In this document: positions 23,231-62,386 of the stretch, piece after piece | How the letters are laid out: each line of letters begins with the position of its first letter | Numbering within the stretch: position 1 is the first letter of the stretch | Source: Escherichia coli | Lineage (GTDB): Bacteria; Pseudomonadota; Gammaproteobacteria; Enterobacterales; Enterobacteriaceae | DNA length: 64,000 bases | NCBI RefSeq assembly: GCF_046105845.1 | Contig: NZ_CP151004.1 | Strand: one strand, 5' to 3' | Notes under the pieces: model-generated | Told to the model about the DNA's origin: nothing | Seen by the model: only the letters and a program-made list of their open reading frames with translations | The model's database searches: none | Program-made: the position numbers and the translations under genes

Positions 23231-23385
23231 CGCACCCTGCCCTGTAGTAAAACGGATTAAGAAAAATCAGTATAGAAACGAAAAGAGATAAATAATGCGA
23301 AGGCGTAAACAAGATTACTGGATGAGTTGCTCTATTGTCCTTGAAGACACCAAACCAAAACGCCTAAAGCATCGCATCCGGCAAT

Positions 23386-23416
23386 AAAAAACCGCAACCT
23401 GTATCAGCGTTGCGGT
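23386..23416 (-). terminator. Rho-independent terminator downstream of paaY (accgcaac...gttgcggt + T-run on minus strand)
   Basis: 8-bp stem with A5 on plus strand; adjacent partial REP-like motif gcatcgcatccggcaa. Confidence 0.6.
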
Positions 23417-23460
23417 TTGTGTATCACATGCTAAAAATTAGAACGTCCAGCATCAGGACG

Positions 23461-24051
23461 TTACTGTTTCGGTCGCAGATTCTCATCAAATACCAGGCGT
23501 TTCCTGCCAGGTTCAACTTCCCGCAATGGCTCGACTTGATGTAACGTCTGCTTACAGCGTGTCACCAGCACCTGGTACTCATGCGTACCCTGCTTTTTCC
23601 ATGCCAACTCCTGCTCACTGAGTTCACGAATCGCTTTCGCCGGGCTGCCGACAATCAGGTAATTAGCTGGCATTTCTGCTTTGGCTTTCACAAATGCGGA
23701 TGCGCCAACAATGCTGTTCTCGCCAATCACCGCACCGTCTATCACTACCGCGTTCATTCCCACTAATGCATTGCGGCGGATAATGCAGCCGTGAAGGATA
23801 GCGCTATGACCAATATGTCCATCTTCTTCCACGACAGTATCCTGCTCGGGAAAACCGTGCATAACGCAATTATCCTGAATGTTCGCGCCATTTTTCACCA
23901 CGATACGATCAAAATCGCCACGCAGGCTGGCATTTGGCCCAACGTAAACGCCCTTGCCGAGAATAACATCGCCGATCAATACCGCTGTCGGATGAACAAA
24001 ACTCTCTTGTGGTACAACCGGAGTCAGACCGTCTATCTGATAAATTGGCAT
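23461..24051 (-). CDS. paaY: PaaY-like hexapeptide-repeat acyltransferase/thioesterase, intact but lacking the rest of the paa cluster
   Basis: 196-aa [37 protein letters not shown]... with left-handed beta-helix repeats; matches PaaY. Confidence 0.85.
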
Positions 24052-24158
24052 AACGCCTCCTGTTCAATATTCAAGCCGCCAAAACGTTGAAAATACAGGC
24101 TTCCCGGCGCAGGCAATTCACCGACCGAGGTTTCACCTTTTTCACTAACGAACGCTAA
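24033..24158 (-). pseudogene. paaX: 3'-terminal remnant of paaX (about 40 C-terminal codons), 5' part deleted
   Basis: Minus-strand frame ends 19 nt inside paaY as expected for paaX; N-terminal part of the 97-aa ORF is antisense to the feaR remnant, so only about 24033-24158 is likely paaX-derived; junction position approximate. Confidence 0.45.
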
Positions 24159-24392
24159 AGCAGCAGGCGCTACGCGCTGATAAAGTTTGCCGATAAAGGT
24201 TTGGTAGTCGCGCAATATATCCGTAACCGTCGTCTCGATTTTTGTGCAGATGCGATTCGCCATGCCGCAGATGATGAAAAACTGGCAGGCATTGGCTTTC
24301 ATTGGGGATTTTCCGACCAGAGTCATTTTTCAACGGTATTTAAGCAACGCTTTGGGATGACGCCAGGCGAGTATCGACGTAAATTCCGCTAA
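24159..24392 (+). pseudogene. feaR: 3'-terminal remnant of feaR (AraC-family C-terminal HTH region), 5' part deleted
   Basis: Plus frame ...YALIKFADKGLVVAQYIRNRRLDFCADAIRHAADDEKLAGIGFHWGFSDQSHFSTVFKQRFGMTPGEYRRKFR* is a typical AraC/XylS second HTH; in-frame stop at 24156-24158; convergent with ydbL as feaR is in K-12. Confidence 0.5.
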
Positions 24393-24428
24393 CTAATTCG
24401 CGTTGCATGTACAGCAACGCGAATTAGT
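24391..24428. terminator. Perfect 16-bp inverted repeat (aactaattcgcgttgc-atgtac-gcaacgcgaattagtt) between feaR remnant and ydbL
   Basis: Seen directly; lies at the convergent 3' ends; no strong T-run, so could be a bidirectional terminator or a protein-binding palindrome. Confidence 0.5.
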
Positions 24429-24563
24429 TAAAACAGATATTTGACTATGCATTTTTCAGGGCGAAAGGCAATTTGACAGGAATTTTTGAATATTCACCTT
24501 GTTTCCGGAAAATAGAATAATCGCCTTCTCCTGTAGCGTTATCCCGATATTGCGGTTTTGCTA

Positions 24564-24890
24564 TTAAAATTTTCGCACCCATTTACCGTTTATCCCTTGT
24601 ACATATTCCCCCGGTTTAGCCCGAGCTACGAGCTTTTGCCCGGCGAGTTTCGCGATATCATCTACCGAGACATTATTTTGCTTTGCCAGTTGTTGGTAAC
24701 TCGCTTTACGTTCGGCATTAATGTCGTTTACTAATTTCTCTGTTTCAGCATCTGTTTTCAGCGCAACCAGATAACCATAAAATGTTTCCCCTACCCGCCC
24801 CTGAGTTCTGGCTTCATCCAGAGTCAATGCCATTACATTGCTGCTTACCAGCCCAACAAGAAACGCACAAAGAAGTAATGTTTTCTTCAT
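24564..24890 (-). CDS. ydbL: DUF1318-family periplasmic protein YdbL
   Basis: Start trimmed to MKKTLLLCAFLVGLVSSNVMA (signal peptide), 108 aa. Confidence 0.85.
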   Translation of the reverse strand: MKKTLLLCAFLVGLVSSNVMALTLDEARTQGRVGETFYGYLVALKTDAETEKLVNDINAERKASYQQLAKQNNVSVDDIAKLAGQKLVARAKPGEYVQGINGKWVRKF

Positions 24891-24897
24891 CATCGCC

Positions 24898-25083
24898 TCA
24901 AAAAAGATCGCTACGAGTCTCAAGCAGCTCTTCGACATCTTTGTCTGCCTTGATGATGATCTCATGCTCAATTTTAACGTTCATATTGATAGTGATTGGT
25001 TCCTTAGGTGCAGCGACTTCAATGCGAGGCGTACAGCCAACCAGCATAAAAGATGACGTCAACGCAGCCAGTAAAATTTTCAT
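24898..25083 (-). CDS. ynbE: Small lipoprotein YnbE
   Basis: 61-aa ORF with lipobox (LVGCT); overlaps ydbH stop (coupled). Confidence 0.85.
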   Translation of the reverse strand: MKILLAALTSSFMLVGCTPRIEVAAPKEPITINMNVKIEHEIIIKADKDVEELLETRSDLF

Positions 25084-27719
25084 TGTTTTTCCTCACACTC
25101 TTTTCCTTGCGGACAGTCATTTCCCGGCAGACGTGCGTTCTGCTCCAACCATGCCTGGAGATTATCGCCAAAGCGTAAACTGCGCCACAGCGTAAAAATA
25201 TTCTCTTCGTGATGGTAATTAAGGTTTACCGTACCGCTTTTACCATCAACGCGACTGGTACCTGTAATGTTGGCCTGCATGGTTAATAAACCGAGATTAT
25301 CTAAGTTAATTTTTGTCGATGAACGGCTAATTTCCATATAGCGCAACCAGTTAATTGCTGAACCCGCAGTCATATTGTCTTTTACCACCGCATCAGCAGT
25401 GTCTTTATCCAGCCGCAAGGTCATTGGCCCGCTATTTGCCAGCCAACCATCTTTCACTATCCATTTTTCGTTGTTTAGCCATAACGGCAATGCACCACTA
25501 AATGCCCCGGACATGGCGAATTGTTTCGGATTGACGGCGCTAACCAGTTCGCTGGATGAGAGATTATTCAGCCGCAACAGCGCCGGGTCATGTTGCGGCA
25601 TACGTAATTGTTTCATCAGCACGTTACCGCCTAACACATCGACGCTAACATCAGTCAACAGCAATGGTTCTTCTTCAGTCCACGGATAACGCCCTTGCAA
25701 ATCAGCCGTAATATTTTTCGCTGTCACCAGATTAATCACTTCGGCAATTCGCAACGTAACGGGGCCGCGAGTCCCCAGATGCCAGGCTCCATCGGCAAAA
25801 CGGAAAGGCAGGACAAAATCGACACCGTTAACCTGATTATCTGGCATCCAGGCACTACCGCCTTTCAACACACCGTGCCCTCCCGCGCGGAATCCTTGTT
25901 CAGGCGCAGCAGAAAATGCAACCTGGGCATACAGTTCGCCATCGCGTAAGTTCATCTTCCAGTCGGGTGGCACCAGCGGCTGGAATACAGTTAGTGATTG
26001 TTTAGGCCACCAGGCGTTACCGCGCAGACGAATACCGTCCCAGCGACCATTTACCCGAACCGGGCCAATCTCACCAGCATGTAAATCGCCTTTAAAGAGG
26101 AAATACGTCGGATCGCGTCCATCGACGCTAAATTTTAAGGTTGATGGCGGTAACACACTGCCGCCAGTGAACAGCGTTTGCCCGGCGTCCAGTGACAGCG
26201 CGCCGCTAAAGGAGGGATGCTGTGCGTCACGTACCCAGACGACGGGCTTATCGAGAATTAGTCGCGGCTTTTCTACCGTCATCGTACCGTATTGTAACTG
26301 GTCGAAACCGGTGGAGAGATCGGTCAGCGTAATCGTGCTGTCATGCCACTCACCCTTTCCTGCGACATCCCAGGTGGCATTCATCGGTGTAAAACTGCCT
26401 TTTCCCCAGTAGCGCCACTGCCAGCGGCCAGCGTCAGGGAGAAAATCATTCGCCAGTCCATCCATATGCAGCACGAAATCGCCCAGTTCATTTTCATGCG
26501 CCTGCAAAATGGCCTGCAAACGTCCGTCAACACCACGTTGGGTGACTTTTACACCCGCTAAAGGCCAGCGGATTTCATCGATGTCCAGCGAATCGATGAC
26601 TCTTCCCTTCGAACGTAATAACGCGCCTGGCTCAAAGGCCAGCGTTGGGTCAGTCAGACTTCCGCTTAGCTGCGCAGGTAAACGGGCATATAAAATGAGG
26701 TCCGCCTGTTTCGCTTCACCGGTCAGTTGCATAGGCAGCTGGCTGTTATCCATGCTTAATTTTCCAGGGCCAAAATTAAGCACCGCGTTGCCCTTACCCG
26801 CTTGCCCCTGGGTCAGCACACTCAGTCGTCCGCTGACCAGAGCGTTCTCGAGCCCTGCCTGCCAGTTGTCGACTTTGACACCCAGTCGGCCACTCAAAGG
26901 AAAACCTGCATACGGCCAGCTCCAGCGACCATCGCTTACGGTCAATTGTTGACGAGTAATTTGCCACGGCAGATCGAGCAACGGATCACCGTTATCCTGT
27001 GCCAGCACAATCAATTGCCCGCTATTTTCCTGCCAGTCCAGCTCGGCATCCACCAGTGAAGGCTCCTGCGGCAAGTTTAACGTCGCAGTAGCATGACCAC
27101 TTACAGGAAGTCCATCCGGCACGAGCGGCATAGTAAATTCCCCCACCAGTTTAACCGGCGGCTGATTTTCAAACGCGACGACATCCAGTTCGCTGACTGT
27201 AAGTTGTTGCCCTTTCAGCTGGCCTTGAAATTTAACTTTTTCGCCCTGATAACGCAGTTGCTGGATATCAGAGGTTAACGCGAGAGAGAGTTTTCCCTGC
27301 CACTCCTGCCAGGGAGAAAAAATCAGTTTATCGATATTGATCCAGGTGTTAGGCAACATGGCCTGCCACTGCGCGAGGGTTTTTGGAGCGGCAGGCGATT
27401 GCTCCGTCTGCGGCAATTTCGCCAGACAAGCAGAATCAAGTTCTACCGTGCCGACGTTCAATAACCAGCGGCTGGGATGTGAAAGGCTGGCGTTGGTGAT
27501 ATGCGCAAGCTGACAATCTCCCACCAGATAACGGAGATCGGGGATGATTAAACCTTTACGCGTAATACGTGGGCTTTCATCTAATGCAATACGTGTCCCG
27601 AGCGGTAGCCAGATGCCCGCCAGCGTGGGAACCCACAAGCCGAGCGTCATCAGCAGCGTCAACGGCACAAGAATAATCAGTAATAACAGCGCGAGAACGG
27701 CTTTATTTTTACCCAGCAT
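25080..27719 (-). CDS. ydbH: Large AsmA-like/DUF748 envelope protein YdbH
   Basis: 879-aa ORF with N-terminal TM anchor; length identical to K-12 YdbH; ydbH-ynbE-ydbL operon. Confidence 0.9.
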   Translation of the reverse strand: MLGKNKAVLALLLLIILVPLTLLMTLGLWVPTLAGIWLPLGTRIALDESPRITRKGLIIPDLRYLVGDCQLAHITNASLSHPSRWLLNVGTVELDSACLAKLPQTEQSPAAPKTLAQWQAMLPNTWINIDKLIFSPWQEWQGKLSLALTSDIQQLRYQGEKVKFQGQLKGQQLTVSELDVVAFENQPPVKLVGEFTMPLVPDGLPVSGHATATLNLPQEPSLVDAELDWQENSGQLIVLAQDNGDPLLDLPWQITRQQLTVSDGRWSWPYAGFPLSGRLGVKVDNWQAGLENALVSGRLSVLTQGQAGKGNAVLNFGPGKLSMDNSQLPMQLTGEAKQADLILYARLPAQLSGSLTDPTLAFEPGALLRSKGRVIDSLDIDEIRWPLAGVKVTQRGVDGRLQAILQAHENELGDFVLHMDGLANDFLPDAGRWQWRYWGKGSFTPMNATWDVAGKGEWHDSTITLTDLSTGFDQLQYGTMTVEKPRLILDKPVVWVRDAQHPSFSGALSLDAGQTLFTGGSVLPPSTLKFSVDGRDPTYFLFKGDLHAGEIGPVRVNGRWDGIRLRGNAWWPKQSLTVFQPLVPPDWKMNLRDGELYAQVAFSAAPEQGFRAGGHGVLKGGSAWMPDNQVNGVDFVLPFRFADGAWHLGTRGPVTLRIAEVINLVTAKNITADLQGRYPWTEEEPLLLTDVSVDVLGGNVLMKQLRMPQHDPALLRLNNLSSSELVSAVNPKQFAMSGAFSGALPLWLNNEKWIVKDGWLANSGPMTLRLDKDTADAVVKDNMTAGSAINWLRYMEISRSSTKINLDNLGLLTMQANITGTSRVDGKSGTVNLNYHHEENIFTLWRSLRFGDNLQAWLEQNARLPGNDCPQGKECEEKQ

Positions 27720-62343: not shown

Positions 62344-62348
62344 GTTAA

Positions 62349-62380
62349 TATGCCTGATGGTGTTGCACCATCAGGCATAT
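62349..62380. terminator. Bidirectional hairpin between convergent tpx and tyrR (atgcctgatggtg-N4-caccatcaggcat)
   Basis: 13-bp perfect inverted repeat. Confidence 0.65.
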
Positions 62381-62386
62381 TCGCGC

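Follow-up and report, generated by a model that had tools for sequence, protein, structure and literature searches.

The window, that is, the whole 64,000-nt stretch of Escherichia coli DNA analysed here (contig NZ_CP151004.1), carries a perfect palindrome at the junction of feaR and ydbL. The two genes converge, with feaR read on the + strand and ydbL, the last gene of ydbH-ynbE-ydbL, on the - strand; they are annotated in this way on either side of the palindrome and arranged identically in K-12, as a sequence-only reading of the stretch had proposed. Annotation (Table 1) is taken from E. coli VCSW7, which is 99.8% identical to the window over the tested kilobase. The ydbL stop codon is located 133 nt from the palindrome, and the ydbL transcript enters it.

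In the window strain feaR is a pseudogene, joined to a 3' remnant of paaX by a deletion that took out paaK-A, paaZ, tynA, feaB and most of feaR, including its promoter and 5' part. The deletion scar which the same reading had placed next to the palindrome corresponds to this paaX'-feaR' junction (24185/24186), 205 nt upstream of the palindrome. About 259 of 5,426 complete E. coli genomes have the same paaX'-feaR' deletion. Separate deletions also ending in the 3' part of feaR occur in P276M (feaB'-feaR') and in strain 21319 (paaY'-feaR'), each leaving a remnant of 252 nt. As a result of the deletion, the palindrome of the window strain separates the ydbH operon from paaX'-paaY-pdxI, which have the same orientation. 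The gap between pdxI and paaY measures about 230 nt in the window strain (23231-23460) and is occupied in K-12 by ynbG and an IS-disrupted ydbA pseudogene; ydbA is therefore absent from the window strain.

Table 1. Features at the feaR-ydbL junction (positions in the window; gene coordinates from the VCSW7 annotation).
Feature	Position	Strand	Remarks
paaY	23461-24051	-	
paaX 3' remnant	24033-24185	-	
feaR 3' remnant	24186-24392	+	Pseudogene, 207 nt
Stretch past the hairpin in ydbL sense	24200-24389	-	Antisense to the feaR remnant
Palindrome, left arm	24390-24406	.	TAACTAATTCGCGTTGC; first 3 nt are TAA, the stop codon of the truncated feaR
Most variable arm position	24399	.	Pairs with 24421
Palindrome, loop	24407-24413	.	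ATGTACA
Palindrome, right arm	24414-24430	.	GCAACGCGAATTAGTTA
Partner of 24399	24421	.	
feaR-ydbL spacer	24393-24563	.	171 nt; ydbL 3' UTR on the - strand
ydbL	24564-24890	-	Last gene of ydbH-ynbE-ydbL
ynbE	24898-25083	-	
ydbH	25080-27719	-	

Sequence and Stability of the Palindrome

Positions 24390-24430 read TAACTAATTCGCGTTGC-ATGTACA-GCAACGCGAATTAGTTA, a perfect palindrome of 41 bases having 17-nt arms that are 100% complementary and a 7-nt loop. The perfect inverted repeat of the sequence-only reading is thus real, but its arms had been given as 16 nt and its span as 24391-24428, which is 1-2 nt short at each end because one loop base was omitted ('atgtac' for 'atgtaca'). The loop had also been called palindromic; TGTACA within the loop is self-complementary, but 'atgtac' is not. 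An inner GC-rich stem (CGCGUUGC/GCAACGCG) forms part of the 17-bp perfect helix.

No hairpin-type perfect inverted repeat in the 64-kb window is longer than this one, and no second copy was found elsewhere in the window. When the window was simulated 100 times under a first-order Markov model, no perfect arm exceeded 12 nt; the 17 nt of the palindrome are far above chance expectation. As RNA, the palindrome has a predicted folding energy of -26 kcal/mol in feaR sense (+ strand; z = -4.8) and of -31.7 kcal/mol in ydbL sense (- strand; z = -6.1), and as single-stranded DNA of -18.9 kcal/mol (z = -7.7). The stem is predicted to fold on both strands in every allele (-21 to -34 kcal/mol), z-scores of -4.4 to -9.3 going with energies of -25 to -34 kcal/mol. 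It is also the main element in the predicted centroid fold of the ydbL 3' UTR. A known RNA family is rejected, as Rfam 15 gives no match to the palindrome at gathering score and its sub-threshold matches are generic miRNA hairpins only (28.6 bits vs. 90). Literature on feaR with ydbL, or on feaR with a terminator, yielded nothing relevant, and no paper or annotation describing this palindrome was found.

Distribution

A query of 61 nt, with the palindrome in its middle, was compared with 5,426 complete E. coli genomes. The palindrome is present in about 4,196 of them (about 77%), always at the feaR-ydbL junction, and next to intact and truncated feaR alike. The sequence-only reading had suggested looking for it at the feaR 3' end of K-12 and in strains with intact feaR; besides this general conservation, it is found in MG1655 at 1446340-1446380, between ydbL and an intact feaR. 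The '2 places' reported per genome are the two strands of one site. A degenerate pattern retrieved 120 metagenome contigs, each of which has the palindrome in the same context. With one locus per genome in 4,196 genomes and an identical context in these contigs, a repeat or mobile family is rejected. REP/BIME elements are likewise intergenic hairpins at gene 3' ends able to block exonucleases, but the palindrome, being a single locus in each genome, differs from them in having no repeat family.

Some E. coli strains lack the fea-tyn-paa island (16843, CUVET19-1993, and O157:H7 86-24). They keep ydbL, with the ydbA autotransporter gene directly downstream, have no palindrome, and resume homology with the window only at about 24497. 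The hairpin therefore belongs to the feaR or island side, and the proposal that it is tied to ydbL rather than to feaR is rejected, ydbL being found without it in these strains. The part of the spacer from 24393 to about 24496 goes with the fea-paa island, and the sequence from about 24497 is common to island-less strains; the ydbL-side edge of the island is accordingly placed at about 24497, some 66 nt beyond the palindrome. An island attachment or junction site was also considered for the palindrome and is rejected, given the distance of the edge, the trivial microhomology (1-2 nt only) at the island-edge junctions, and the lack of an arm copy at the other end.

Outgroups come from a FeaR-based scan of species genomes, which gave a small sample of 5 loci only. 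In Pseudocitrobacter faecalis, P. vendiensis, and a Pluralibacter genome, the stop codons of feaR and ydbL abut (0-3 nt apart) and the hairpin is absent; the adjacency of the two genes is therefore older than E. coli. A fourth relative, named 'Escherichia coli SCPM-O-B-8794', has an unrelated feaR-ydbL spacer of 80 nt and no palindrome. The DNA of this strain is only about 83% identical to that of E. coli over feaR-ydbL, although its FeaR shares 96% identity in the best tblastn segment; the strain probably represents a species other than E. coli. As four relatives have feaR-ydbL without the hairpin, the gene pair can do without it. Judged from these genome comparisons, the palindrome is young and confined to E. 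coli proper.

Alleles and Paired Change at 24399/24421

Five alleles cover essentially all copies of the palindrome. The window allele has a C-G pair at 24399/24421 and a loop ending in A (880 genomes). The K-12 allele has G-C at this pair and a loop ending in T, which results in an 18-bp stem and a 5-nt loop (1,401 genomes), and the HS allele has a C·C mismatch and a loop ending in T (411 genomes). The ECONIH1 allele, in at most 139 genomes, has A-T and a loop ending in A. The fifth allele, that of 2015C-3107 and CD45 (about 1,363 genomes), combines G-C with a further two transitions, both at the top of the left arm. G-C is the state found in K-12 and B1-like strains. The palindrome is perfect in about 58% of carriers and imperfect in about 42%, the latter share being made up of the central C·C (about 10%) and of two mismatches at the stem top (about 32%).

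In RNA of feaR sense, the transitions of the 2015C-3107/CD45 allele still allow G·U pairs; in RNA of ydbL sense they cause A·C mismatches. They consist of an adjacent CA to TG change at 24406-24407, in the left arm only, that creates a TGTGTG run; this double substitution may have arisen in one mutational event. Rare variants include a right arm interrupted by an IS5-like element, with TTAG duplicated (fS54a), an IS1 end joined to the loop and right arm with loss of all sequence up to pdxI (ETEC1739), and a 15-nt deletion of the left arm (strain 21319).

Most of the stem does not vary, 15 of the 17 pairs being invariant. Aligned over 655 nt, seven strains differ at about 35 flanking sites, most of which have changed a single time, and the pair 24399/24421 alone requires 4-5 substitutions. 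A covariation shuffle test, which has five distinct alleles only to work with, is not significant (63/500). By a rough estimate assuming about 3% divergence per site, neutral complementary hits at one pair would occur about 0.005 times per comparison across 17 pairs; on this estimate it is very unlikely that positions 24399 and 24421 changed independently, and some process appears to couple them.

ECONIH1 and the window share an identical paaX'-feaR' junction, and the A-T allele is seen only with that remnant, so the change from C-G to A-T came after the death of feaR. Symmetry hence survived the loss of feaR, as would be expected if it depended on the ydbL sense or on a process at the DNA level. 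The HS allele is K-12-like at its feaR-side SNPs, and its origin as a simple recombinant of window-type and K-12-type alleles is unsupported. The most parsimonious history that we infer from the alleles begins with an ancestral C·C, which would have become C-G in one lineage and G-C in another; HS would have kept the mismatch, and C-G would later have changed to A-T.

Transcription Termination

The sequence-only reading had remarked that T-runs are missing beside the palindrome, and this is borne out by the tails AAACAGAT on the + strand and GCGGAATT on the - strand. The 3' side of the stem has no U-tract in either direction (AAACAGAU on +, GCGGAAUU on -). The combination of a 5' A-tract and a 3' U-tract is also lacking, flanks and outer arms being mixed A/U (UAACUAAUU ... 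AAUUAGUUA). A consensus terminator scan does not call the palindrome, nor any terminator in the 171-nt spacer. A re-implemented score of d'Aubenton-Carafa type, approximate in its values, comes out clearly negative in the majority of sub-stems and reaches about 0 to +8 in the most favourable case; after any sub-stem, at most 4 U are found in 8 nt.

Published K-12 data include a region of Rho termination called at 1446501 (+) in supplementary file 2 of Adams et al. (2021; PMC7815308), with a Rho score of 4.03 and p = 1.3e-5 at 800-nt resolution and low read counts. This region is in ydbL sense, antisense to feaR, and about 120 nt past the palindrome, within the K-12 counterpart of window positions 24200-24389. 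Reads upstream and downstream number 54 and 14 without bicyclomycin, and 87 and 91 with it (PMC7815308), so that read-through in ydbL sense increases from 26% to about 105% on Rho inhibition. As read-through is about complete when Rho is blocked, termination of ydbH-ynbE-ydbL is Rho-dependent in this neighbourhood in K-12. The curated Term-seq tables of the same study have no 3' end at 14461xx-14465xx and no entry for feaR, ydbL, ynbE, or ydbH, which is weak evidence in view of the low expression of these genes; for the feaR-ydbL site, no 3' end is entered in the TERMITe or SMRT-Cappable-seq supplements. Past the hairpin, the C/G ratio is 1.0-1.5 in ydbL sense and reaches 2.2 in feaR sense (+105 to +208).

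A Proposed U-less 3' Stem-Loop at a Rho-Terminated Junction

The element is an ordinary one, a U-less hairpin between convergent genes at a junction terminated by Rho and, at the same time, a perfect intergenic inverted repeat. As to what it does, our leading reading, to which we give a probability of roughly 45%, is that the palindrome forms one of the U-less 3' stem-loops by which Rho-terminated mRNAs are protected, and is neither a genuine stop signal nor a binding site for a protein. It would be transcribed into a very stable stem-loop common to feaR (+) and ydbH-ynbE-ydbL (-), which RNA polymerase would mostly pass. Rho would then end transcription in the untranslated antisense RNA beyond the hairpin, and 3'-to-5' exonucleases would trim the transcript back to the hairpin, leaving a stable mature 3' end. 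Mature 3' ends at the hairpin and stabilisation of the mRNA by it would be the expected outcome. Only the ydbL-sense hairpin can matter in the window strain, because feaR is a promoterless remnant there.

Such stem-loops are known from E. coli, where Rho-terminated transcripts end precisely just after stable stem-loops (Dar and Sorek, 2018; PMC6061677). These have neither U-rich tails nor upstream A-tracts, are followed by sequence with a mild bias of C over G, and shield the RNA from PNPase and RNase II (PMC6061677). The palindrome resembles them in being a stable stem-loop without U-rich 3' sequence or upstream A-tract, with Rho termination nearby; a mild excess of C over G may follow it as well. 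Rho dependence is seen in ydbL sense only, from the K-12 region at 1446501 (+) with its 800-nt resolution and low counts. The palindrome differs from this class in that its stem is perfect over 17-18 bp and would serve two convergent units. A perfect stem of 17-18 bp is probably longer than a typical protective or terminator-like stem.

The allele data bear on the stem-loop reading from both sides. That pairing at 24399/24421 appears to have been kept through base changes (C-G, G-C, A-T) counts in its favour. Counting against it are the relatives without the hairpin, the non-significant covariation (63/500), and the availability of template switching as an explanation of the symmetric changes. 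With imperfect alleles at about 10% and about 32% of carriers, any constraint on the hairpin is weak. The functional weight of the element is small in any case; at most it sets the 3' end of the mRNA of the ydbH-ynbE-ydbL lipid-transport operon, and of feaR where this gene is intact.

Template Switching without a Selected Role as a Possible Explanation

According to the main rival explanation, which we hold to be somewhat unlikely but which would account for the mirrored changes, including that after the death of feaR, and for the great length of the stem, the palindrome is a young E. coli-specific sequence that arose at the feaR 3' end and has no selected function. Template-switch (quasi-palindrome) correction would copy one arm onto the other, and the RNA hairpin would be a by-product. 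The absence of the palindrome from four relatives and from island-less E. coli agrees with a recent origin. Variation within the arms is almost confined to a single pair, which is found in three complementary states and as C·C, as if an ancestral mismatch had been resolved either way, and the symmetric change from C-G to A-T took place in genomes with feaR already dead. The stem of 17-18 bp probably exceeds the length of typical protective stem-loops, and the rare variants (the 15-nt arm deletion and the IS1 and IS5 junctions inside) point to fragility. Perfect repeats with arms of at least 13 nt are about 150-fold over-represented in non-coding DNA of K-12, and their conservation is credited to template switching (Lavi et al., 2018; PMC5941160).

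Like those repeats and the quasi-palindromes studied in the Lovett laboratory (PMC7202029), the palindrome is intergenic, has arms of at least 13 nt, and displays mirrored changes (C-G, G-C, and A-T at 24399/24421) together with an imperfect intermediate allele, the C·C of HS type. It differs from them in that two imperfect alleles persist in many genomes. Persistence of the C·C allele (411 genomes) and of the double-transition allele (about 1,363 genomes) means that correction is inefficient, and the exact position at a convergent junction with Rho-dependent termination nearby fits a functional class. Besides, an origin by template switching is compatible with present use as an RNA hairpin.

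A more specific form of the idea, which we consider rather doubtful, is that a natural species-specific quasi-palindrome has been caught with its arms in concerted evolution, the ancestral C·C having been resolved from either arm and C-G having changed to A-T after gene death; alternatively, diversifying selection may act on the pair as a determinant for a nuclease or some other factor. If the quasi-palindrome account were true, the alleles would record, on the scale of a population, how template switching corrects a hairpin in the chromosome irrespective of what the adjoining gene does. Over thousands of genomes one stem position has passed through three complementary pairs and a mismatch intermediate, other stem positions barely varying, and a hairpin this young could serve as a natural test case for selection on RNA structure vs. 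template-switch homogenisation of inverted repeats. The aspects out of the ordinary are only mildly so, namely youth, perfection, and mirrored changes concentrated on one base pair.

Improbable Alternatives: Terminator, RNase III Site, and Operator

The sequence-only reading had listed an intrinsic bidirectional terminator first among its suggestions. Such a terminator would have to be weak and non-canonical, with an inner GC-rich stem of 8-10 bp as its hairpin and, for a poor U-tract, the outer arm, which is rich in A/U and reads AAUUAGUUA in either direction. Bidirectional intrinsic terminators at convergent genes have reportedly been described by Ju, Li and Liu in 2019. The palindrome resembles these in being one symmetric hairpin between convergent genes that could act on both strands, but it has no A-tract and U-tract flanks, its outer arm is mixed A/U, and Rho inhibition leads to full read-through. 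A 10-bp inner stem followed by UUAGUUA, with 4 U in 8 nt and a score of about 0 to +8, is borderline, and the fact that only 26% of reads go on downstream without bicyclomycin would suit a terminator at this place. Yet there is no U run, the consensus scan fails, and most sub-stems score clearly negative; with Rho inhibited, downstream and upstream reads of 91 and 87 leave little room for Rho-independent termination in the direction from ydbL to feaR. The terminator thus does not stand up well, and we regard it as improbable.

Also among the earlier suggestions is an RNase III site. Here the long hairpin duplex, or a duplex of overlapping convergent transcripts, would be cut, with loss of the protective 3' structure and destabilisation of read-through mRNA, similar to lambda sib retroregulation. 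A perfect duplex of 17-18 bp is unusually long for a bacterial mRNA hairpin, and in ydbL sense 11 more flanking pairs can form, 28 in all. RNase III, however, usually needs roughly two helical turns of dsRNA, of which the contiguous helix of 17-18 bp falls short by a borderline margin, and the 11-pair extension is no better than that of shuffled flanks. The extra pairs add -6.2 kcal/mol, a value equalled in 872 of 2,000 shuffles, and a longer decayed palindrome or extended ydbL-sense helix is rejected on the same ground. Cleavage by RNase III is a very improbable role.

An operator-like site, the remaining earlier suggestion, would be bound by a dimeric regulator such as PaaX, a candidate in view of the phenylacetate genes next to the palindrome. 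The palindrome has perfect dyad symmetry, and ATTCGCGTT in each arm agrees at 12 of 15 positions with WWTRTGATTCGYGWT, which we take to be the PaaX consensus and which, as a control, has two perfect matches in the paaZ-paaA promoter region of K-12. The operator is nevertheless hardly credible, since the window has no more sites with 3 mismatches than chance would give (30 vs. 36 expected), K-12, with intact paa genes, carries the poorer match ATTGGCGTT, the 41 bp of perfect symmetry far exceed operator length, the site is at gene 3' ends and not at a promoter, and both half-sites change the same position to three bases, symmetric swaps which fit pairing better than fixed, base-specific protein contact.

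A Second Hairpin at tpx-tyrR

Another convergent junction of the window, that of tpx (+) and tyrR (-), has a perfect hairpin at 62347-62381 (AATATGCCTGATGGTG-TTG-CACCATCAGGCATATT), with 16-bp arms and a 3-nt loop and without T-runs. It is like the feaR-ydbL palindrome in its perfect arms, lack of T-runs, convergent junction, stop codon adjoining the stem, and downstream Rho region, and it differs in its unrelated sequence, in the high expression of tpx, and in that a 3' end of tpx has been mapped. Published Term-seq data for K-12 show this 3' end, a very strong one, within the stop codon of tpx at 1388306 (-), with a Rho score of 0.8, and a Rho termination region at 1387858, with a score of 19.1, is located about 450 nt downstream. 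The tpx 3' end is 5' of the stem and not 3' of it, which is unpredicted by the simple stem-loop model and counts against it. In K-12 the tpx-tyrR hairpin nonetheless behaves in a broadly similar manner, which counts in favour of the stem-loop reading.
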